This document shows, piece after piece, positions 5,087 to 21,938 of a stretch of DNA of 37,471 bases. Below the pieces are notes generated by a model. The model was not told where the DNA came from, made no database searches, and saw nothing but the letters and a program-made list of their open reading frames with translations. Origin of the DNA: a virus (taxonomy: Duplodnaviria > Heunggongvirae > Uroviricota > Caudoviricetes); IMG/VR virus record IMGVR_UViG_2563366824_000004; one strand, 5' to 3'. Position 1 is the first letter of the stretch. Every line of letters starts with the position of its first letter. Position numbers and translations under genes: made by a program.

Positions 5087-7497
5087 GTCATGCCGATATG
5101 AACAACTGCTGCGGCTTTAACGAGGCTGCCGCAGCATTCTCATGGAACAGCCCGAAAAAGGCCATTAACCCTTATCTGGACCCGGCGGAAGTTGCGCCGG
5201 TTTCTACGCTTTCAAACCTGATCACTCTGTACGCTGCCGATAACGAGCAGGAACAGTTGCGCCGCGAGGCACTGAGTGATCAGGTCTGGGAGCGTTATTT
5301 CTTTAATGAATCCCGTGATCCTGTCCAACGCGAAATGGAGCAGGATAAGCTCATTAGCCGGGCAAAGATGGCGCATGAGCAGCAGCGTTTTAATCCGGAC
5401 ATGGTCATTCTGGCCGACGTCAACGCCCAGCCTTCCCATATCAGCAAGCCGCTGATGCAACGTATTGAATATTTCAGCAGCCTGGGCAGGCCAAAGGCTT
5501 ATTCCCGCTATTTGCGTGAGACGATTAAGCCATGTCTGGAACGACTGGAGCATGTACGCGACAGCCAGCTATCTGCATCTTTTCGTTTTATGGCAAGCCA
5601 TGAAGGGCTGGACGGTCTGCTGATCCTGCCTGAAATGAGTCAGGATCAGGTGAAACGCCTGTCTACCCTTGTCGCTGCGCATATGAGCATGTGTCTTGAT
5701 GCCGCTTGTGGTGATTTGTACGCCTCCGATGATGTTAAGCCAGAAGAAATCCGCAAGACATGGGAAAAGGTGGCTGCAGAAACCCTGCGACTGGATGTCA
5801 TACCGCCTGCGTTTGAGCAACTCCGCCGGAAAAGAAACCGCCGCAAACCTGTGCCCTATGAACTCATTCCGGGTTCGCTGGCGCGTATGCTGTGCGCCGA
5901 CTGGTGGTATCGGAAATTATGGAAGATGCGTTGCGAATGGCGGGAAGAGCAGTTGCGTGCTGTCTGCCTGGTCAGCAAAAAAGCATCTCCCTATGTCAGC
6001 TATGAAGCCGTGATGCATAAACGTGAGCAGCGCCGTAAGTCGCTGGAGTTTTTCCGTTCTCATGAACTGGTGAACGAAGACGGCGACACGCTGAACATGG
6101 AGGATGTGGTAAACGCCAGCAGCAGCAACCCGGCGCATCGCCGCAATGAGATGATGGCCTGTGTTAAAGGCCTGGAGCTTATCGCGGAAATGCGTGGTGA
6201 CTGCGCCGTTTTCTACACCATCACCTGTCCGTCACGTTTCCATTCCACGCTAAATAACGGCAGGCCAAACCCGACCTGGACCAACGCGACAGTAAGACAA
6301 AGCAGCGATTATCTGGTCGGCATGTTTGCTGCATTTCGTAAGGCTATGCACAAAGCCGGGTTGCGCTGGTATGGCGTGCGGGTGGCTGAGCCGCATCATG
6401 ACGGCACAGTTCACTGGCACCTGTTGTGTTTCATGCGTAAAAAAGACCGCCGCGCCATTACTGCATTGTTGCGTAAGTTTGCCATCCGTGAAGACCGCGA
6501 GGAGCTGGGCAATAACACGGGGCCACGCTTTAAGTCTGAGCTGATAAACCCGCGCAAAGGAACGCCGACAAGCTACATTGCGAAATATATCAGTAAGAAT
6601 ATTGACGGGCGTGGTCTGGCTGGCGAGATCAGTAAGGAAACGGGTAAATCCCTGCGTGATAACGCTGAATACGTTAATGCCTGGGCGTCTCTGCATCGTG
6701 TTCAGCAATTCCGCTTCTTTGGCATTCCGGGGCGTCAGGCTTACCGTGAACTGCGATTGCTGGCTGGTCAGGCGGCAAGGCAACAGGGTGACAAAAAAGC
6801 AGGTGCGCCGGTACTGGATAACCCGCGCCTTGATGCCATCCTGGCTGCTGCTGATGCTGGTTGTTTTGCCACCTACATCATGAAGCAGGGCGGCGTACTG
6901 GTTTCCCGCAAATATCACCTCATCAGAACCGCTTATGAAATCAACGAAGAGCCAACCGCCTATGGCGATCACGGTATTCGTATTTATGGCATCTGGTCAC
7001 CCATTGCAGAGGGCAAGATCTGCACTCATGCAGTGAAGTGGAAAATGGTTCGTAAGGCCGTTGACGTTCAGGAGGCGGCAGCCGACCAGGGCGCTTGCGC
7101 CCCTTGGACTCGTGGCAATAACTGTCCCCTTGCTGAAAATTTGAACCAACAAGGGAAAGACAAATCAGCTGATGGGGACTCCAGAACGGATATTACCCGT
7201 ATGAATGACAAGGAGTTGCACGATTACCTGCACAGTATGAGCAAAAAAGATCGCCGGGAACTGGCAGCAAGGTTACGCCTGGTGAAACCGAAACGGCGTA
7301 AAGACTACAAACAGCGAATTACAGACCATCAGCGACAGCAGCTTGTCTATGAATTGAAGTCCAGAGGATTTGATGGCAGCGAGAAAGAGGTCGAGTTGCT
7401 CCTTCGCGGTGGCAGTATTCCGTCAGGAGCAGGCCTGCGTATCTTCTATCGGAACCAGCGTCTGCAGGAGGATGATAAGTGGCGGAACATGTATTAA
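5083..7497 (+). CDS. A: Replication initiation protein gpA (rolling-circle endonuclease)
   Basis: 804 aa; HxH metal motif (TVHWHLL) and the tyrosine pair region [13 protein letters not shown] typical of P2 A-family initiators; located after the early operon. Confidence 0.9.
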
Positions 7498-7591
7498 TTA
7501 CGCTGATTAACAATTCGTGCTCTTAATAATACCAGGCATATCAGGCTGATGAACGTAAAAAAACGTTTTACATCAGTAAGATTATTATATA

Positions 7592-7607
7592 CTGTAAATA
7601 TAAACAG
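7592..7607 (+). promoter_or_regulatory. LexA (SOS) box CTGT-N8-ACAG
   Basis: Sequence tACTGTAAATATAAACAGtg, 44 bp upstream of the ATG at 7651, matches the E. coli LexA consensus CTGT-(AT-rich)8-ACAG. Confidence 0.6.
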
Positions 7608-7650
7608 TGGTTATGTATACAGTATTGCTTGTGGTGTCATAGGAGGAAAA

Positions 7651-7839
7651 ATGCAGGACTATTTTTTGGAGTCTTTGAAGCTCCAGCGCATTGATTTTTT
7701 TCTTAAGCTTGTAGCGGCTAGTGAGTGTAGTGATGAAGAGAAGGGGCTGGCTTTGCAGTGGGTTTCTGAACTAACAGATGAACTCATGGCAAAAATCAGA
7801 ACCCACGAATACAACCGCTCAATGGATGTCATCAGTTGA
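7651..7839 (+). CDS. SOS-regulated small protein (63 aa), possible Tum-like antirepressor component
   Basis: ATG at 7651 with AGGAGG upstream, downstream of the LexA box. The longer ORF-track start at 7549 lies upstream of the operator and is rejected. Function inferred from context only. Confidence 0.5.
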   Translation: MQDYFLESLKLQRIDFFLKLVAASECSDEEKGLALQWVSELTDELMAKIRTHEYNRSMDVIS

Positions 7840-7849
7840 GGTGACTTTT

Positions 7850-8083
7850 ATGCGCATTGAAATAATGATCGATAAAGAGCAGAAGATTAGCCAGTCTATC
7901 CTGGACGCCCTTGAATCCGAGCTTTACCGCAATCTGCGCCCCCTGTATCCAAAAACGGTAATTCGTATCCGCAAAGGTAGCTCTAACGGTGTGGAACTGA
8001 CCGGACTGCAACTGGACGAAGAAAGAAAACAAGTGATGAAAATTATGCAGAAGGTGTGGGAAGACGACAGCTGGCTGCATTAG
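7850..8083 (+). CDS. DinI-family protein (77 aa)
   Basis: MRIEIMIDKEQKISQSILDALESELYRNLRPLYP...EERKQVMKIMQKVWEDDSWLH aligns along its length with E. coli DinI as I recall it (MRIEVTIAK...AIDALAGEL...KEDKQRISEILQETWESADDWF). GAGGTG RBS. Confidence 0.8.
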   Translation: MRIEIMIDKEQKISQSILDALESELYRNLRPLYPKTVIRIRKGSSNGVELTGLQLDEERKQVMKIMQKVWEDDSWLH

Positions 8084-8211
8084 AGAACGTTGCGGATGAT
8101 AAAACTAGCTTTTACCATCTGCAAGGCTGAACAACGATTGTAGCGAGGTGTTAGGTGGTTCAAAAGTAAAGCGGTTATTTTGCCCGTAAAAGTGAACCAC
8201 CTGTATCTTGA

Positions 8212-8952
8212 TCAGTTTTCTTTGAATTTTTCACTTAATCGTTTCGTCAATACTTCGACAGATTCTTTGCGACCGGAGAACAAGTCATTGACGACGTACT
8301 CCATAATCTCAAAAGCATCCTCAATGTCTTTGACTTTTACTTCATCGTAGGTATGGCTTCCGGCATTTCCTAAAAATTTAATTGCCATAAGAGGTCTTGA
8401 AAACGATCCGTATAATTCAGGTAGCATCCCTAAACGGTGGTGTAGAGTTATGCGTTTGCCATTATCATTACGTTCAGCTACATCCATAGCGGTTAGCATT
8501 CTTTCAACTGAAATTCGAATTAGGTTTGCTGCTGCGCCAGGCTGTATTAGGAAAATGGAAAATGAGGCTTCAAGCGGTTCGGTAATTTCTTCTGGGCATT
8601 TTTCAGGTATTTCGAAAGGATGCAGTGATGGGTAAAAGGTGAAAGGTCTGTGCCATTGATAGTACTCAATATCATTTCTTTCTTCATCCCAACCTTGTTC
8701 CCATCCACTCTTACCAGTACAGGCCACAACTTCACCACATTGCATTCTTGAACAGCGGGCCATGCAACTGAAAATAGATGAATCCATTTCTAGTTCAAAC
8801 CAATCTTCACTGCGGAATTTTCGGGTATCATGTGTGTCATACGAGACGAAACTTTCTTTAATGATCTGTAGGGTTTTCTGATTGCAGTTAGGGCAGGGCC
8901 ACTCAACCTGCATATCGTGGAAAAACGCACCAGAGAGCTTGTGCACAGTCAT
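8212..8952 (-). CDS. Hypothetical cargo protein (246 aa) with N-terminal Cys-rich putative Zn-ribbon; candidate phage-exclusion gene
   Basis: Leftward AT-rich ORF at the position occupied by tin/old in P2. CPNC...C...C..C cysteine clusters; C-terminal alpha-helical region with a GNAGSH motif. Confidence 0.7.
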   Translation of the reverse strand: MTVHKLSGAFFHDMQVEWPCPNCNQKTLQIIKESFVSYDTHDTRKFRSEDWFELEMDSSIFSCMARCSRMQCGEVVACTGKSGWEQGWDEERNDIEYYQWHRPFTFYPSLHPFEIPEKCPEEITEPLEASFSIFLIQPGAAANLIRISVERMLTAMDVAERNDNGKRITLHHRLGMLPELYGSFSRPLMAIKFLGNAGSHTYDEVKVKDIEDAFEIMEYVVNDLFSGRKESVEVLTKRLSEKFKEN

Positions 8953-9152
8953 TCTTTGTGTTCCTCATTTTTATGATTGGTAGGGATTGTATCTTCATAC
9001 ACGATTACAGTTGCATTAAAGATAAGCCATAGCAAGCTACTGGAAAAGAGACGAAACAGTTGGGCATATCAGATGTTTTTTCTTAAGGTAAGTTGTTGTG
9101 CATGCCTATACTGCATGAGATTGCATGATCGTTTGAGGATCGTTATTGCTAA

Positions 9153-9177
9153 GGCCCACCAGAACTGGCGGGCTTTT
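9153..9177 (+). terminator. Candidate intrinsic terminator (imperfect GC stem followed by TTTT)
   Basis: GCCCACCAG-AA-CTGGCGGGC followed by TTTTG; would terminate rightward transcription just before the candidate cos site. Confidence 0.35.
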
Positions 9178-9222
9178 GCGTAGAGCATGCAGGTGCATGA
9201 AAACAACTACATAAAGCGGGCA

Positions 9223-9241
9223 GGCGTGGCGGGGATACGAG
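9223..9241. other. Candidate cos (cohesive-end) site
   Basis: GGCGTGGCGGGGATACGAG: the first 13 nt match the 19-nt cohesive end of 186/P2 as I remember it (GGCG(T/A)GGCGGGGAAAGCA..); located between A and Q as in P2-family genomes. Recalled from memory, not verified. Confidence 0.35.
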
Positions 9242-9356
9242 CGCGCGCTGGTTAATTTATATGAGAACAATCTCATATAAATATTCGAGACAAGTTGCAA
9301 AAAAACGCGGAGCATTATATGTTTAGTAGCAAATTCTGAACGTTGAGAATATTAAA

Positions 9357-10625
9357 ATGGAAATTTTTGATACGAATGATATCTTTGGGCTCTCAAGAGA
9401 TTTGCCACTTAATTACATTGAAAGACCTGATGTTGATTTCAAACTTAAACAGGAATTACAAGCAAAGAAACATATTGTTATTTACGGCAGTTCAAAGCAG
9501 GGTAAGACTTGCGTAAGAAAACACTGTATTAATTCTGATGATTATATTTTGGTGCAGTGTTCGAATCGTTCTGATGTATCTGAATTGAATGCAAGTATTT
9601 TAAAAAGAGCTGGATTCGAAATAACTCAGTCTACCAAGAAAGGTATTACGGGGAAAAATAAAATAATCGCATCAATAAAAACTTCTATTTTGGGTTTTGT
9701 GGCGAGTGCCGGAGGCGAGATCGAAGATACGAAATCTCATGAACAAGTAACCGCGCCTTTAGAAATTGATGTTGATGATGTTAATGATGTTATAGCGGCT
9801 TTAAAATCTATAAATTTCAAGAAGATTATCGTTCTTGAGGATTTTCATTATATGCCTTTCGAAACTCAAAGAGATTTTTCGATCGCATTAAAAGCCTTTC
9901 ATGAAACATCAAGCATTATTTTTGTAATTGTTGGAGTTTGGCTAGAAGATAATCGGCTCATTGTTTACAATGGTGACTTAACTGGCAGGATTATTTCTGT
10001 TAACGCAGACAAATGGCAAGATTCTGAACTGGAGATGGCAATTGATAAAGGAGGTTTACTCCTTAACATTGATTTTGATCCAACTTTCAAAGCAGATGTA
10101 GTAACACACTGTCTCAATAGTATTTATTTAGTGCAAGAAGCATGTAGGCGTGCGTGTATTGAATGCGGAATATCAGAGACTCAGCAAACAAAAAGAACTA
10201 TTGGAGCTGGTTTGGATGGAAAGGATATCATTGCAAAAATTGTTAATGACCAATCGGCTCGTTACAATTCTTTCCTTATTAATTTTTCAGATGGATTTCA
10301 AGATACTGAACTTCAAATGCATAAATGGATTTTATATCCTGTCCTTTCATCAACCATTAGTGAACTTGAATTAGGTTTGAAATTTAAAGATATAAGGGCA
10401 ATATTACAAAGTGTACATCCAAGAGGGGAGAAGTTAAACCTGGGTAATGTTACTCAGTCGTTACAATCAACGGCGTCTTTGCAAATAAAGAAAAATATAA
10501 TGCCTATTATTTTGGATTATGACCAAACAAATAGGAAACTGAATGTTGTTGATAAAGGCTTCCTAATATGGTTGCAACATCAAGATATCAAAGATCTAAA
10601 GGATGATTTGGAGTTGCCAAATTAA
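9357..10625 (+). CDS. P-loop NTPase (422 aa), hypothetical cargo; candidate defence or abortive-infection ATPase
   Basis: Walker A GSSKQGKT (residues 44-51) and Walker B-like IIVLEDFH; C-terminal roughly 200 aa without a motif I recognise; strongly AT-rich; lies between the candidate cos and portal gene Q. Confidence 0.75.
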   Translation: MEIFDTNDIFGLSRDLPLNYIERPDVDFKLKQELQAKKHIVIYGSSKQGKTCVRKHCINSDDYILVQCSNRSDVSELNASILKRAGFEITQSTKKGITGKNKIIASIKTSILGFVASAGGEIEDTKSHEQVTAPLEIDVDDVNDVIAALKSINFKKIIVLEDFHYMPFETQRDFSIALKAFHETSSIIFVIVGVWLEDNRLIVYNGDLTGRIISVNADKWQDSELEMAIDKGGLLLNIDFDPTFKADVVTHCLNSIYLVQEACRRACIECGISETQQTKRTIGAGLDGKDIIAKIVNDQSARYNSFLINFSDGFQDTELQMHKWILYPVLSSTISELELGLKFKDIRAILQSVHPRGEKLNLGNVTQSLQSTASLQIKKNIMPIILDYDQTNRKLNVVDKGFLIWLQHQDIKDLKDDLELPN

Positions 10626-10642
10626 TTCATGTCTTTATTATA

Positions 10643-10673
10643 GATAATGGCGCCTATGTAGGCGCCCATTATC
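10643..10673. terminator. Hairpin between the convergent NTPase and Q genes (possible bidirectional terminator)
   Basis: GATAATGGCGCC-TATGTA-GGCGCCCATTATC near-perfect inverted repeat immediately after both stop codons. Confidence 0.4.
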
Positions 10674-11705
10674 TTAGAATTCAAGTGTATACGGTTTGAA
10701 TTGGATTATATTCTCATTAGACCAACTATTTAATCCTTTTATTCTTTCCTGTAATGGTATTAGCTCATTCCTCACAAACACACAGCTAGCCTTTTCCACA
10801 TCCCCAAATCCTCCAACATTATTAGGTATAATCCCCATCATTTGCGGTGGTACGCGGTGCGCAGCCATCATGTCATCGCGGCTGACATTTTTGATATTCA
10901 GAAACTCATCCTTCGCCGCAACTTCTGACAGAGGAATGATCTGAAGCCCATCCTTTTTGCCATTAGGTGAGTACATAAACAGGTTGCGGAAATTGCCTGG
11001 ACCTTTGGCGCTTTTCATCGCGTTGCGGAGGTTGTTCACATCCTCCTGGTTCTGCGCCGCATCGGTCATGTACATGATGAAGCCTGCATGACTGCCGTTA
11101 ATGTAATACTTGCGGCGGAACAGCGTGGCGGACTCGTTGAGCAAAGCGGATGGGATGGCAGAAAGATAGCCGGGCAGGCCGTAGATCTCCTGATTAATAT
11201 CCGGTTCCATCAGATGAAAAATGCTGCCTTTCGTGAACTGATACGGCTGGGTTGTCATACCGTATTGCATAAACCAGTAGGTATCCAGGTCTAATCCGCG
11301 TCGGGTGTATTTTGCAAGCGCAGGCTCAAGAGCGATAACTTCACCGAATCGGTTCGTGCGTTTCTCCAGGTAGGCGTTACCAAATACCAGATAGTCCTGC
11401 ACAAAACGCGAAAAAGCCTGCTGGCTGAGCAGCGGATGAGGGATATAGGTACTGGTCAGAATGTTGCACTTTACTGCAATCGGGGAACTGTGATGCACGG
11501 CGGCGCGGAAGGTGCGCGCCAGTCCGTCAAAGCTGACGGGCGGCTCATACCAACGGTCCATCTGTACGCATTCCACATAATCCAGCAGTTCTCGGCGGTC
11601 CAGAACAGGAACGGGATCGCCGAAGCTGAATGCTTCGGCTGTAGTTTGACTTTTAAGCTGGATCTGTTTCGTCGCCGCAGCGCGGTTCTTCTTACTCTTT
11701 CCCAT
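10674..11705 (-). CDS. Q: Portal protein gpQ
   Basis: 343-aa leftward ORF directly upstream-adjacent to the terminase ATPase; its ATG overlaps the P stop (ATGA); P2 Q-P arrangement. Confidence 0.85.
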   Translation of the reverse strand: MGKSKKNRAAATKQIQLKSQTTAEAFSFGDPVPVLDRRELLDYVECVQMDRWYEPPVSFDGLARTFRAAVHHSSPIAVKCNILTSTYIPHPLLSQQAFSRFVQDYLVFGNAYLEKRTNRFGEVIALEPALAKYTRRGLDLDTYWFMQYGMTTQPYQFTKGSIFHLMEPDINQEIYGLPGYLSAIPSALLNESATLFRRKYYINGSHAGFIMYMTDAAQNQEDVNNLRNAMKSAKGPGNFRNLFMYSPNGKKDGLQIIPLSEVAAKDEFLNIKNVSRDDMMAAHRVPPQMMGIIPNNVGGFGDVEKASCVFVRNELIPLQERIKGLNSWSNENIIQFKPYTLEF

Positions 11706-13471
11706 CAAAAAATCTCCACAATATTGCTGGTATTGGCGGATTCGCCCTGCAGCGGTTCGTTAAACAGTGCGTGCATCGTTGCCCAGGCCAGATCGGCGTG
11801 GCTGGCTTCTTCGCTGCGGCTGGCTTCATAGGTCGGGCGGTTGCCACTGGCGGTGGTGGCGCGACGGATTGCCATAAAGGACTGCGCTATGTCGGTGTGT
11901 CCGGCGTCAAACTCCAGACGGCGGTGGCTGATAATGTCGTAGGCCTTGAGTACCAGGGCGTTTTTAACGTTGGGGTTGTAGACAAACTCCCGGACGGCAG
12001 GAAAAAACGCTTTCACGTTCTCGTAAACCCCGTGACCAACGCCGGTTGAGTCGATACCGATATAGGTCACGTTGTACTGTTCGGTCAGTTTTTTGATGGC
12101 GTCAGCCTGGGCGCGGAAGTCCATTCCGCGCCACTGGTGACGCTCAAGAATGCGGAACTTACCGCCCGGCACGGCTGGCGGCGCCACCACCACGCATCCG
12201 GCGCTGTCGCCGTTCTGCGTACCTTTCGCCGGGTCATATCCGATCCACACTTCGCGCCAGCCAAACGGGCGCAGGGCCAGTGCATGAAAGTCGGTCCAGA
12301 CTTCCCAACTGTCCACCATGCACGCCTGCAGCTCGCTGAGTGGGAACACAGACGCGAGATCGTCCACGAACTCACACATCAGCAGGTTCTGGTATTCGTC
12401 CGGGCTGTACTCCATGCGCAACTGGTCGAGGTCGAACAGGTTACAGCCGCCGCGCACCGCATCTTCCACAGTGACTATCTGGCGGTACTGCCCGTCTGCG
12501 CACAGCAGGCCGGGGGCCAGATTGCTGTGGGACAGGTCGATGTCCACCTTATCGGCTTTGTTGCGCCCTCGGTTGAACAGCGCACCGGACCAGAACGGAT
12601 AAGCACTGTGTGTCAGGCTGGATGGCGTGGAAAAATAGGTTTGTCGCCATTTTTTGTGAATAGCCATACCGGAAGCCACTTTGCGCAGCTCCTGGAATTT
12701 CGGTATCCAGAAATATTCATCCAGATACAGGTTGCCGTGGTAACTCTGGGCCGTGCGGGCATTGGTGCCGAGGAAGTACAGCGTGGCCCCGTTAGGAAGC
12801 ACCATCGGATCGCCTTTCAGCTCCACCTCCACTTCTTTGGCGAAGTCGATGATGTACTGCTTAAAGACGTGGGCCTGAGCCTTGCTGGCGGAAAGGAAAA
12901 TCTGGTTACGCCCGGTTAGCAGGGCGTCAATCAGGGCTTCACGGGCAAAATAGAAGGTCGCGCCGATCTGGCGTGACTTCAGCAGGTTGCGGATGCGGTT
13001 GGTTTTTCCGGCTTCCCACCAGTGGCGCTGGTAGTTGAACATGGAGGAATGGAAGATTTCTTCCAACTTCTCAATCTGTTCATCGGTGAAAACGTTCTTT
13101 TCCGGCTGACGGCGCGGGCCTTTGTTGCGGTTGGCGACGTTAGGGTTTAAGTCGGCTTCGTTGCCGCCATTGTTAAACTTGCCGATCCGCGCATGGCGCT
13201 CCGACTGGCGCGCCAGCAGGTCAATCTCTTTGAAATCTTTCCCTTCTTTGTGCTCCTTCATAATGAGCTGGCAGTAGCGTGCGGCGGTGGTGAGCTGCAT
13301 CTGATCCAGCGGCCCATAGTCACCCCACTTGTCGCGTTTTTTCCAGCTGTGAACGGTTGCAACTTTCTCGCCCAGCATTTCAGCAATGCGGGCTACGCGG
13401 TATCCCTGAAAGTACAGCAGCATGGCCTGCCGACGGGGATCGAGATCTGCGGGTGTCAGTGTGGTGTTCAT
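11705..13471 (-). CDS. P: Terminase large (ATPase) subunit gpP
   Basis: 588 aa, leftward, divergent from the O-N-M-L operon, as for P2 gpP. Confidence 0.85.
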   Translation of the reverse strand: MNTTLTPADLDPRRQAMLLYFQGYRVARIAEMLGEKVATVHSWKKRDKWGDYGPLDQMQLTTAARYCQLIMKEHKEGKDFKEIDLLARQSERHARIGKFNNGGNEADLNPNVANRNKGPRRQPEKNVFTDEQIEKLEEIFHSSMFNYQRHWWEAGKTNRIRNLLKSRQIGATFYFAREALIDALLTGRNQIFLSASKAQAHVFKQYIIDFAKEVEVELKGDPMVLPNGATLYFLGTNARTAQSYHGNLYLDEYFWIPKFQELRKVASGMAIHKKWRQTYFSTPSSLTHSAYPFWSGALFNRGRNKADKVDIDLSHSNLAPGLLCADGQYRQIVTVEDAVRGGCNLFDLDQLRMEYSPDEYQNLLMCEFVDDLASVFPLSELQACMVDSWEVWTDFHALALRPFGWREVWIGYDPAKGTQNGDSAGCVVVAPPAVPGGKFRILERHQWRGMDFRAQADAIKKLTEQYNVTYIGIDSTGVGHGVYENVKAFFPAVREFVYNPNVKNALVLKAYDIISHRRLEFDAGHTDIAQSFMAIRRATTASGNRPTYEASRSEEASHADLAWATMHALFNEPLQGESANTSNIVEIF

Positions 13472-18588: not shown

Positions 18589-18982
18589 AGCGGTGCCTTA
18601 TGTCCGCAATAACCCGGACAAACTGCATCTGTTTGTGGATAACGGTTCGCTGGTTGCTACAGGGGCCAGCTCCATGTCATGGGAGTATCGTTACACCCTG
18701 AACGTGGTGGTTGAGGATTTCAGCGGCGACCAGAATCTGTTGATGGCCCCGGTTTTGCTGTGGCTGCGGGATAACCAGCCCGATGCCATCAATAACCCGG
18801 CGTTACGGGAAAAGTTATTCACCTTTGAGGTGGATATTCTGCGCAATGATGTCTGTGATATCAGCCTGAACCTGCAACTGACGGAGCGTGTGCTGGTCAG
18901 CACTGACGGCAGTGTGTCGAGCGTTGAAGCGATAACGGAACCCGATGAACCTGAAGAAATGTGGACGGTGAAACGTGGCTGA
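18551..18982 (+). CDS. R: Tail completion protein gpR
   Basis: GTG at 18551 with AGGAG upstream gives MNKPQSLRHALNKAVPYVRNNPDKLHLFVDNGS, resembling the P2 gpR N-terminus as recalled. Confidence 0.8.
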   Translation: MNKPQSLRHALNKAVPYVRNNPDKLHLFVDNGSLVATGASSMSWEYRYTLNVVVEDFSGDQNLLMAPVLLWLRDNQPDAINNPALREKLFTFEVDILRNDVCDISLNLQLTERVLVSTDGSVSSVEAITEPDEPEEMWTVKRG

Positions 18983-19418
18983 ATTGCAGAAAGTGGACGA
19001 CTGGCTGAGTGCCTTACTGGCGAATCTGGAGCCAGCTGCAAGAAGTCGCATGATGCGCCAACTGGCACAGGAGCTGCGCCGGACACAGCAGCAAAACATC
19101 AGGATGCAGCGCAATCCAGATGGCAGTAGTTATGAGCCGCGACGGGTAACAGCGCGCAGTAAAAAAGGCCGCATCAAACGTCAGATGTTTGCGAAGCTGC
19201 GCACCACAAAATACCTGAAAACTGCCGCCAGCGCCGATTCTGCCAGCGTGCAGTTTGAAGGTAAGGTGCAGCGCATTGCCCGTGTTCACCATTATGGACT
19301 GCGTGATCGTGTCAGTAAACGTGGGCCGATAGTTCATTATTCCAGACGATGCTTGCTAGGTATTAATGAGCCTATTAAAAAAGAAGTTGAGAGATTTTTG
19401 ATATATTGTATTTCATAA
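18975..19418 (+). CDS. S: Tail completion protein gpS
   Basis: GTG start overlapping the R stop; position after R. Confidence 0.75.
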   Translation: MAELQKVDDWLSALLANLEPAARSRMMRQLAQELRRTQQQNIRMQRNPDGSSYEPRRVTARSKKGRIKRQMFAKLRTTKYLKTAASADSASVQFEGKVQRIARVHHYGLRDRVSKRGPIVHYSRRCLLGINEPIKKEVERFLIYCIS

Positions 19419-19458: not shown

Positions 19459-21327
19459 TTAATTTTCAATGCTTTGCTTTAATTTATCTATTGCGGGAGT
19501 TAAACAATCATTTATGAGCTCATCGATTTGTAATGATAATATATTTGAGTTTATTTGAGTTTTCTTTTCAATTAGCTTTCTAATTAGCTCGCGGTGGAAA
19601 AAACGCTCTGCAGAAAGCTCTTTTAGATAAGGGGTGTTGTTGTATCGGTTTTTTATAGCATAGCCAAAGAAATGCATCTCGGTTGAGTCTATCAGTATTT
19701 TTGTTAGTTGTTCAGCATCACCAAAATAAAGAACTGGTTTGTCGTGAAATGAATAAATATCTTTGTTGTTGAAATTTAGATGTGCGTAATATTCATGATT
19801 TCCGGACTGTATTAATTTGAATATCTTTTGAGCGTCTTGGCTAAGTTGATATGCAATTAATACATTTTTCTTTTGTTCTATGTAATTAACAAGCTCCTTG
19901 AATTCCCTAGTTTCTTTGCAATGAAAAGTTAATCCTCTCCATCGCTCATCCTTAATGTCTTCATCAAAAATTTCATAACTAGTTTGTATCATTCCTTTTT
20001 CTGCTAAAATATCAACAGCAGAGTGGGCTAAGTTTGTTAAATAGTGTTCGTTGATGGGTTTTATATGTTCTCTGGATAAATGAAGTAATAATCCGTAAAT
20101 ATGCTTAAGAACATGCTCGTTCAATATTTCAAAATTAATAAGCGTATGAAGTGTTGAATTGTAATTTTCCTCAAATTCTGTGTATTTTAATCGATCATAA
20201 TTCCAAAGTTGTGTCCATGGCTCAATTGTTTTATTAGAAACACTGACGAATGTTATTAATTCAGATATTATTTTTTCTTGATTGATTTTCTGATTGTCAA
20301 TTATATCGATCCAGGTATCCTCGTCTAAGATTAAATTTGACAAATAAGTTGTACCATATTTTTCAATTAAATTGGATGTGTATTTATTATCATCATCTAT
20401 TTTATATGTTAACAAGTCAGAAACGGTTCGTTTTATTTTATTAGATTCAAAATAGAGTATAAAATGTAATTGATATAATCTGAGTGTCAAATCTGAATTT
20501 TGCTGAAACTGTGCTGGTAATATTTTGAATATTCTTTCAAAAAAAGAAATTTGCCTTTCAATTAATCTAATGTTATTACACTCTGAAAGAGTGAGTAAGC
20601 TCTCAATATTTTTTATGTTCAGAATGGTGTTGAGTTCGCTAGTTATATTTTTTAGAAAATATTCGTAGGCGTGAGAATGTTGAGGTTGATATTTGAAAGT
20701 TATACCTATAACTTTTTCTTTTGCATCTAAATAAATACCATCATGATTTTTATTTCTAGCGGGGTTTAATATTTCTCTCTCATTGGCGATAATCAAAACC
20801 TTGCATTCTTTTTCTTCAACGAAATTATTTATATAACCAAATATAGAATTCCAATCTAATTCGCAGCGTTCAAGATCATCAAATATCAATATGGTGTTTT
20901 CTGGTGAGTAGTAAAAGTCTTTAATGCTTACGTTGGGTAGTTCTGGGGAGCCCTCTACACTTGTAACGAATGAATCACTTAAATCAATCTTAAGTGTGCC
21001 TTTAATTAGTGCCTTAGTTAGTGTGCCAGCAAGCAACATGCCTTTAGATGAAAGGAAGGGATGCATTTGCTTGAAAATTATTTCGTCAATTTGTTCGGTG
21101 GATTTTATTCCATATAATGAGATCATTAATGGCTTAACTTTCCCTTTTAGTGATTCTTCATTCATTAATTTACGGACAAACCATGTTTTCCCGCTTCCCC
21201 ATTCGCCGTCAATCATTACTGCGAAATTAGGGGATTTTTCAAGATCCACTAAATAATTAAGATATGAGGTTAGCTCTTCATTGTAATTCATTGGATTGTA
21301 AGACCCTTCATACAATTTGAAAATCAC
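19459..21327 (-). CDS. KAP-family P-loop NTPase (622 aa), cargo gene between S and V
   Basis: Hallmark KAP Walker A DGEWGSGKTWF and Walker B ILIFDDLERC; strongly AT-rich; opposite strand to the flanking late genes. Start may be the ATG at 21291 rather than the GTG at 21327. Confidence 0.75.
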   Translation of the reverse strand: MIFKLYEGSYNPMNYNEELTSYLNYLVDLEKSPNFAVMIDGEWGSGKTWFVRKLMNEESLKGKVKPLMISLYGIKSTEQIDEIIFKQMHPFLSSKGMLLAGTLTKALIKGTLKIDLSDSFVTSVEGSPELPNVSIKDFYYSPENTILIFDDLERCELDWNSIFGYINNFVEEKECKVLIIANEREILNPARNKNHDGIYLDAKEKVIGITFKYQPQHSHAYEYFLKNITSELNTILNIKNIESLLTLSECNNIRLIERQISFFERIFKILPAQFQQNSDLTLRLYQLHFILYFESNKIKRTVSDLLTYKIDDDNKYTSNLIEKYGTTYLSNLILDEDTWIDIIDNQKINQEKIISELITFVSVSNKTIEPWTQLWNYDRLKYTEFEENYNSTLHTLINFEILNEHVLKHIYGLLLHLSREHIKPINEHYLTNLAHSAVDILAEKGMIQTSYEIFDEDIKDERWRGLTFHCKETREFKELVNYIEQKKNVLIAYQLSQDAQKIFKLIQSGNHEYYAHLNFNNKDIYSFHDKPVLYFGDAEQLTKILIDSTEMHFFGYAIKNRYNNTPYLKELSAERFFHRELIRKLIEKKTQINSNILSLQIDELINDCLTPAIDKLKQSIEN

Positions 21328-21344: not shown

Positions 21345-21938
21345 ATGCAAACTGCAACCATGAACGCACAACTCACAGAAATTATGCGCCTTATCACCAA
21401 TCTGATCCGCACCGGCATTGTGACCGAAGTGGACCGGAACAAATGGCTGTGCCGGGTGAAGGTAGGCGAGCTTGAAACCAACTGGATTAACTGGCTGACG
21501 CTACGCGCCGGTGGTGCCCGTACATGGTGGTGCCCGTCGCCAGATGAGCAGGTGGTGGTGCTGAGCATGGGCGGCAATCTGGAAACCGCGTTTGCGCTGC
21601 CCGCCATCTATTCGAATCAGTTCGCACCACCGTCGACGTCGGCGGACGCCTGCGTGACAGAACATCCTGACGGTGGCTGGTTTGAATACGAACCCGCCAC
21701 CGGGCGCTGGTATGTCAGGGGCATCAAATCAATGGTCATTGAGGCTGCTGACAACATCACCATGAAAACCAGTGAGTTTGTACTGGAGGCTGACCGCACG
21801 CGCATTAACAGCGAAGTGGTGATCAATGGTGGCGTTACCCAGGGCGGCGGAGCGATGAGTTCTAACGGGATCGTGGTTGATGCGCATCAGCATACTGGCG
21901 TCCTGAAAGGCGGCGATACAACCGGAGGCCCGGTATGA
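21345..21938 (+). CDS. V: Baseplate spike/assembly protein gpV
   Basis: IRTGIVTEVD...WINWLTLRAGG...WWCPS...GVLKGGDTTGGP resembles P2 gpV as recalled. Start may be the internal ATG at 21360. Confidence 0.85.
   Translation: MQTATMNAQLTEIMRLITNLIRTGIVTEVDRNKWLCRVKVGELETNWINWLTLRAGGARTWWCPSPDEQVVVLSMGGNLETAFALPAIYSNQFAPPSTSADACVTEHPDGGWFEYEPATGRWYVRGIKSMVIEAADNITMKTSEFVLEADRTRINSEVVINGGVTQGGGAMSSNGIVVDAHQHTGVLKGGDTTGGPV

Follow-up and report, generated by a model that had tools for sequence, protein, structure and literature searches.

The P2-like prophage in IMG/VR record IMGVR_UViG_2563366824_000004 (Caudoviricetes), whose whole stretch of 37,471 nucleotides (nt) is referred to here as the window, carries between its cos site and the portal gene Q a cargo gene (9357..10625, + strand) whose 422-amino acid (aa) product is predicted to be a stand-alone AAA+ ATPase with a winged helix and matches the candidate defence family PDC-S59 (WP_000402159.1). 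The identity of the gene, in terms of fold, cargo status and family, can be given with high confidence and an anti-phage role appears probable, while a mode of action through steric binding of DNA is put forward tentatively. Taken together, the reading of the gene as mobile single-gene cargo coding for an ATP-dependent, DNA-binding oligomeric switch that would protect the lysogen against other phages stands at about an even chance.

The open reading frame (ORF) begins with ATG and is present in RefSeq as a "hypothetical protein" of E. coli APEC IMT5155, in a P2-like prophage to which the window is identical over the ORF stretch. It is a real gene and not a chance ORF, because shuffling the cargo segment 2000 times gave no stop-free run longer than 182 codons, compared to 422 in the ORF, and because the scored candidates included more than 2300 homologs. 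The GC content of the ORF was 0.341 (0.267 at third codon positions, GC3) compared to 0.493 for Q (GC3 0.568), 0.571 for P and 0.530 for A. An initial annotation, made from the sequence alone, had described a strongly AT-rich gene for a 422-aa P-loop NTPase, and both parts of this description held: the GC content lies well under the 0.49-0.57 of the phage neighbours, the ORF is exact, and the Walker A and Walker B motifs are conserved across relatives.

The left boundary of the cargo slot is the cos cohesive-end sequence GGCGTGGCGGGGATACGAG (9223..9241), which agrees with the cos annotated in Salmonella phage SEN8 at 19 of 19 positions and with P2 cosL at 14 of 19. The terminus of the SEN8 record coincides exactly with window position 9222, and the backbone homology to other P2-like prophages passes through cos and ends at approximately 9250. 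A search pattern for P2 cos gave no match at up to three mismatches, and cos was confirmed through the annotated SEN8 and P2 records. On the far side of the slot, Q (10674..11708, - strand) is convergent with the cargo gene. Phage P2 holds the tQ terminator alone between cosL (1-19) and Q (187-1221), which upholds the earlier placement of the gene between cos and Q at a point where P2 has none.

The occurrence of the gene is that of acquired cargo. It was detected in 11 of 5426 complete E. coli genomes, always adjoining the portal gene, compared to 1248 of the 5426 that carry the cos-flanking sequence. The same gpA-gpQ slot holds an ortholog with 86% identity in Klebsiella and one with 76% identity in Serratia, and orthologs across this slot in Klebsiella, Serratia and more distant P2-like phages range from 53 to 91% identity. 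A scan of IMG/VR returned 38 proviral contigs with relatives, including distant P2-like elements in which the homolog (53-56% identity) lies beside Q, once in inverted orientation. Elsewhere the slot between cos and Q is filled differently, with two other genes in SEN8 and a 550-aa P-loop NTPase in E. coli E308. In P2-like prophages of Serratia the homolog is separated from the portal gene by a HicA/HicB toxin-antitoxin pair (loci L088-L090, 7700-8296), and the slot can therefore carry more than one cargo module. The suggestion of an acquired cargo gene in the initial annotation is thus borne out by its lack in P2, its rarity among carriers of the cos region, its foreign GC content and the variability of the slot. 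The alternative, that the gene encodes a core packaging or replication factor of the P2 family which happens to adjoin cos, had been named at the outset as the finding that would overturn this suggestion, and the place of the gene near cos, the portal gene and the terminase genes would speak for it. The gene is, however, missing from P2, from SEN8 and from more than 99% of the E. coli genomes with the same cos region, tblastn gave no match to it in 50,697 phage records, and it is widespread outside phages; a core P2 function is refuted by this distribution, and we assign it a negligible probability.

The region between gpA and gpQ around cos is already known as a hotspot of diversity in which anti-phage systems abound (Rousset et al., 2022; PMC9122126). 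Table S5A of that study lists WP_000402159 as "hypothetical" with varied partners, among them a KAP NTPase, other hypothetical proteins and DinI (PMC9122126). The accession appears only in this hotspot inventory among the text supplements, so it was apparently neither cloned nor tested there. A 2026 study describes rapid swapping at the cos-proximal and Z/fun hotspots and found that six of eight loci of unknown function from the equivalent hotspot of P4 protected against phage (PMC13586616). The old and tin genes of P2 itself lie between A and cos, whereas the cargo gene is on the other side, between cosL and Q, and the cargo region of P2-like phages thus reaches both sides of cos.

Classification with PADLOC placed the protein in PDC-S59 over its full length (E = 4.8e-72, 241 bits; residues 5-411 on profile positions 4-405 of 428). 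The likeness consists of the full-length profile match and the single-gene organisation; PDC-S59 itself is a catalogue entry that comes with no phenotype, fold description or mechanism. A literature search returned no paper naming PDC-S59, and WP_000402159 was found only in the inventory of Rousset et al. The Pfam matches were all sub-threshold (TniB, 17.3 bits with a cut-off of 22.4; AAA_22, 21.3 bits with a cut-off of 27), NCBIfam gave nothing useful for the 422-aa protein, and PHROGs matched it only weakly, to a family whose function is unknown. Sequence searches of the PDB with the single protein and with a 37-sequence profile gave nothing meaningful, and the BFVD viral structure library gave only generic clamp-loader AAA+ proteins (query-normalised TM-score of 0.48 or less). 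The protein is outside every curated family except PDC-S59.

The fold is predicted to be an ORC/Cdc6-type AAA+ domain, to which a lid and an extended winged helix are joined on the C-terminal side. The closest folds in the structure search were Arch_ATPase and Cdc6, with clearly higher Z scores than TniB/TnsC-like proteins, and the NTPase fold, which the initial annotation had left to be placed, is accordingly of the ORC/Cdc6 type in the predicted model. The same annotation had reported a C-terminal region of about 200 aa that it could not assign. The region is real, but it can now be assigned in the model to the helical AAA+ lid (residues ~222-297; 10020..10247, +) and the extended winged-helix domain (residues ~300-422; 10254..10622, +), because a separate model of residues 280-422 (with a pLDDT, or predicted local distance difference test, of 90.7) matches winged-helix-type DNA-binding domains. 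In structure the isolated winged helix was most like the sulfur-binding domains with which type IV restriction enzymes (Hga, ScoMcrA, SprMcrA) sense phosphorothioates, a likeness of fold that was barely ahead of ordinary winged helices, and close behind came those of ORC2, ORC1, RepE, RepA and histones H1 and H5. The AAA+ domain has, after its helix 2, a conserved basic beta-hairpin (residues 87-107; 9615..9677, +) that is a candidate nucleic-acid contact, with strands at 87-95 and 101-107 in the model as assigned by DSSP and a net charge of +4 over residues 85-108. The hairpin is followed by a loop (109-131) that is disordered (pLDDT < 50), variable in sequence, and acidic or glycine-rich.

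Conservation was determined in a close set of 37 homologs (54-90% identity) and a divergent set of 96 full-length relatives (24-53% identity). The Walker A/P-loop motif (G44-S-S-K-Q-G-K50-T51; 9486..9509, +) and the Walker B motif (I-I-V-L-E161-D162-F-H-Y; 9825..9851, +) were both invariant in the close set, as were G99 and K102 of the hairpin. Among the 96 divergent relatives G49 and K50 were each kept in 95 and Q48 in 94, while F163, H164 and Y165 were kept in at least 90. Position 161 of the Walker B motif was always acidic (E in 84, D in 12), and position 162 was D in 71, N in 19 and E in 6. Because 19 of the 96 relatives have N as this second Walker B residue, a nucleotide-dependent switch would fit the sequence pattern better than a processive motor. 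An arginine at residue 211 (codon 9987..9989, +), directly before model strand 212-216, was present in 95 of the 96. The arginine finger at this type of position is a hallmark of ORC/Cdc6-type ATPases and is essential for oligomerisation (PMC12839542), and R211, at the base of strand 5 in the model, is a putative arginine finger. Residues kept in at least 97% of the divergent set were R23, Q48, G49, K50, W195, R211, W220, L236, Q376 and D399, of which Q376 and D399 are located in the winged helix. The protein therefore has the features that define the AAA+ ORC/Cdc6-STAND group, namely a Walker A motif of the form GxxxxGK[ST], an acidic Walker B residue, the conserved R211, and a lid followed by a winged helix. 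These conserved features support a putative ATP-dependent self-association and DNA binding. Four cysteines (C57, C68, C263 and C267) were also invariant among the close homologs, and the divergent relatives keep C68 in 87 and C267 in 91 of the 96; one of these two lies where strand 2 ends and the other belongs to the lid helix. The cysteines might serve the nucleotide pocket, redox chemistry or metal binding.

By analogy, the protein would work most like the ORC/Cdc6-type and STAND-type switches, with differences to each of the known systems. The similarity to the Arch_ATPase/COG1672 group (PABY2304, 2qen; SSO1545, 2fna; both themselves uncharacterised) is one of fold only, at 12-14% identity, and Pfam ATPase_2 (PF01637) was not among the Pfam matches at E ≤ 1. 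Longer members of the Arch_ATPase group carry DUF234, which has been classed as a PD-(D/E)XK nuclease (PMC3424549); unlike these, the 422-aa protein has neither DUF234 nor an extra C-terminal domain. Orc1/Cdc6 and the BREX proteins BrxC and BrxD have a helical insert after strand 2, which contacts DNA in initiators, whereas the model of the cargo protein has no helical (helix-extension-helix/initiator-specific) insert there and has the basic beta-hairpin and disordered loop in its place. The Walker B acidic pair is also E-D in the cargo protein compared to D-E in Orc1/Cdc6 and BrxC/BrxD, and the gene has no BREX partners and no origin context. STAND and NLR-like NTPases (Avs, NB-ARC, CED-4, MalT) carry sensor repeats or an effector, whereas the winged helix is the last domain of the cargo protein, which stops at residue 422, and neither TPR, WD40 or LRR sensor repeats nor a fused effector were found in it.

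Relatives of the gene are distributed far beyond P2-like phages. A scan of one genome per species detected them in 220 species of Proteobacteria, Acidobacteria, Cyanobacteria, Firmicutes, Actinobacteria, candidate phyla and haloarchaea, with full-length identities of 47-62%, and an exhaustive profile search returned 2115 clusters at E ≤ 1e-3, of which 370 reached E ≤ 1e-30. All-against-all clustering of the ORFs within 5 kb of the homolog at 80 loci gave no conserved neighbour. The largest neighbour cluster was of ABC transporters, at nine loci and in variable positions, and the recurrent clusters were ABC transporters and GGDEF/EAL proteins, which are large paralogous families that match by chance. 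The gene is a stand-alone unit with no obligatory partner, because no neighbour is conserved across the 80 loci. The neighbour census bears equally on a role as a target-selector ATPase of transposition (TniB/TnsC/MuB-like), or a remnant of one. No transposase or other conserved neighbour was linked to the gene at these loci, the Arch_ATPase and Cdc6 folds are closer, a winged helix follows the lid, and both TniB and AAA_22 fall below their Pfam cut-offs; the TniB/TnsC-like role was rejected for want of a linked transposase, and we regard it as very improbable. Rare fusions were observed among the homologs. An nSTAND3 NTPase is fused N-terminally in two proteins (P0240, 791 aa; P0259, 860 aa), giving two NTPases in tandem, and a third (P0201, 669 aa) has an N-terminal region resembling an alpha/beta hydrolase at a sub-threshold Pfam value (E = 1.8e-4).

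Some of the genomic contexts are those of defence genes. In one Clostridia genome and one Faecalibacterium genome a homolog is enclosed by HmaA and HmaB, both full-length (E = 0 for each; L031, 4475-12158; L040, 4477-12043), and such embedding in Hma systems follows the same guilt-by-embedding logic as that behind the PDC list. Other defence-like neighbours were TIR-like proteins, PDC-S35, MqsA, an Mrr-type nuclease, HicAB and a giant double helicase. A DpdF/PsyrT signal in the neighbour census was rejected, as it came from a single giant helicase at one locus with no recurrent Dpd association. With the PDC-S59 match, the gpA-gpQ hotspot and the Hma-embedded homologs, a role as a defence sensor or effector is plausible.

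The protein would most probably protect the lysogen against other phages. In the mode of action that we propose, ATP-bound protein may oligomerise through the arginine finger R211, the oligomer would then bind DNA via the winged helix and the basic hairpin of the ATPase domain, and the bound oligomer would directly sequester or block the invading DNA, or a replication or packaging intermediate, without cutting it. The same architecture could instead serve an abortive-infection switch that senses infection and then consumes ATP, or forms oligomers on the chromosome or the replication machinery of the host, and so arrests the infected cell without binding phage DNA. The protein has no sensor repeats and no effector domain, the sequence does not tell host from phage DNA as the target, and the D162N variants in 19 of the 96 relatives argue against ATP depletion as an effector activity; we consider this switch unlikely.

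Several observations count against a defensive DNA-binding switch. No experimental phenotype exists for the gene or for any member of the family, and the PDC systems are listed as untested by their own authors (Payne et al., 2024; bioRxiv 10.1101/2024.01.29.577857). No Pfam or PADLOC domain was found besides the NTPase, and neither a nuclease, TIR, SIR2, protease or membrane domain nor any other effector domain was detected in the 422-aa protein; for want of such a domain the mode of action is a guess. Of 58 immediate upstream neighbours, only about 8-10 appear connected with defence, and many neighbours of the homologs are ordinary metabolic or housekeeping genes. The identity of 47-62% between proteins from E. 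coli, actinobacteria and haloarchaea would be unusually high for a protein that tracks fast-evolving phage triggers. A sigma-70 consensus scan of the + strand upstream of the start gave no convincing site. Finally, in two separate clades the homolog lies directly downstream of ribonucleotide reductase (RNR) genes on the same strand. In the first clade it follows the class Ia nrdAB genes in P. aeruginosa, Stutzerimonas stutzeri and Vogesella, with homologs that are 62-75% identical to each other, and in the second it follows a class II RNR in three Acidobacteriaceae, with homologs 61-64% identical and RNRs 72-92% identical. The RNR-linked loci (L091-L096, L005, L017, L046 and L050) hold the homolog at approximately 6001-7281, 7001-8269 or 8001-9260 of the respective locus.

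The RNR linkage could mark an insertion hotspot or reflect a functional link to replication and the supply of deoxynucleoside triphosphates (dNTPs). The former is suggested because the site downstream of nrdB in P. aeruginosa is a variable region that also carries pyocin S genes. The latter would be expected of a protein of DNA metabolism or regulation with no role in defence, either an ORC/Cdc6-like switch responding to replication stress or DNA damage, as with Orf8 of the haloarchaeal virus SNJ2, or a dNTP-linked factor. Such a role would agree with the retention of the position behind nrdAB or the class II RNR while the homologs diverged to 61-75% identity, with the many housekeeping neighbours and with the high sequence conservation. 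It sits poorly, however, with a gene that is rare and patchy in E. coli, occupies variable slots and has Hma-embedded homologs, and the variability of the P. aeruginosa site and its pyocin genes argue against reading the RNR linkage in this way. The likeness to SNJ2 Orf8 is further weakened because the SNJ2 module needs two conserved partner genes, whereas the cargo gene has no conserved partner. We give a non-defence role of this kind a low probability, and a defence function remains the preferred reading.

A more far-reaching version of that reading, which we hold to be speculative and improbable, is that PDC-S59 is a new class of effector-less immunity, in which invading or modified DNA would become the assembly site of a stand-alone ORC/Cdc6-like ATPase that binds through a winged helix resembling the phosphorothioate readers and blocks replication or packaging with no need of a nuclease, the RNR linkage then representing a coupling to replication or dNTP status. 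The family would in that case be a portable, universal DNA-sensing module, as its conservation from E. coli to haloarchaea might suggest. The hotspot and the general idea are already published and the family is already catalogued, which limits the surprise. Should the gene prove protective, it would validate one of 145 untested PADLOC candidates and would add a defence protein in which no domain for killing or cutting can be recognised; it would then have to be asked how a DNA-binding switch of the ORC-like type could stop a virus by itself. Interest would rise if an effector-less ORC-like protein alone gave immunity, or if the winged helix read modified DNA. The family is small, single-gene, highly conserved and easily cloned, so the question is directly testable.

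Three further elements flank the gene within its slot. A hairpin (10643..10673, GC core 10649-10666) occupies the 48-nt gap between the convergent stops of the ORF (10625) and Q (10674) and resembles a terminator on either strand (folding energies -17.9 and -18.9 kcal/mol), in agreement with the hairpin common to the ORF and Q that had been described earlier. The tQ terminator of P2 is found at the equivalent place and its sequence is not homologous to this hairpin. A perfect inverted repeat of 11 bp (9256..9281), located between cos and the gene, reads TTTATATGAGA-ACAA-TCTCATATAAA; it is not conserved in the orthologous Klebsiella cassette and could be an operator, a recombination scar or a chance occurrence. 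An upstream block aligned with the cassette of the Klebsiella ortholog (9290..9325, +; AGTTGCA ... CATTATAT) is a possible, though weak, candidate for the gene's own promoter. An Rfam scan of 7400-10800 gave only sub-threshold chance matches.

Elsewhere in the window a second AT-rich island (19459-21327, - strand, GC 0.31) is located at the P2 Z/fun hotspot, between the tail-completion gene S (18975-19418) and the baseplate gene V (21345-21938). Its 622-aa product is a P-loop NTPase of the KAP family (PF07693, E = 3e-16) and matches the PADLOC candidate PDC-S49 over the full length (E = 1e-134). On the other side of cos a 246-aa DUF4145 protein (8212-8952, - strand; PF13643, E = 5e-13; phrog_1305, E = 8e-50) has a weak PADLOC match to PD-T7-4 (E = 1.6e-5). 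Identical copies of the 422-aa gene occur both with the DUF4145 gene (L099, L101, L104) and without it (L100, L102, L103), and DUF4145 is therefore a separate cargo gene. The prophage thus holds three separate candidate defence genes. At the left end of the window an integrase (1-1209, - strand), which runs off the end, is followed by a CI-type repressor (1449-2105, - strand), and because of these two genes the window starts at or near the attachment end of the prophage.

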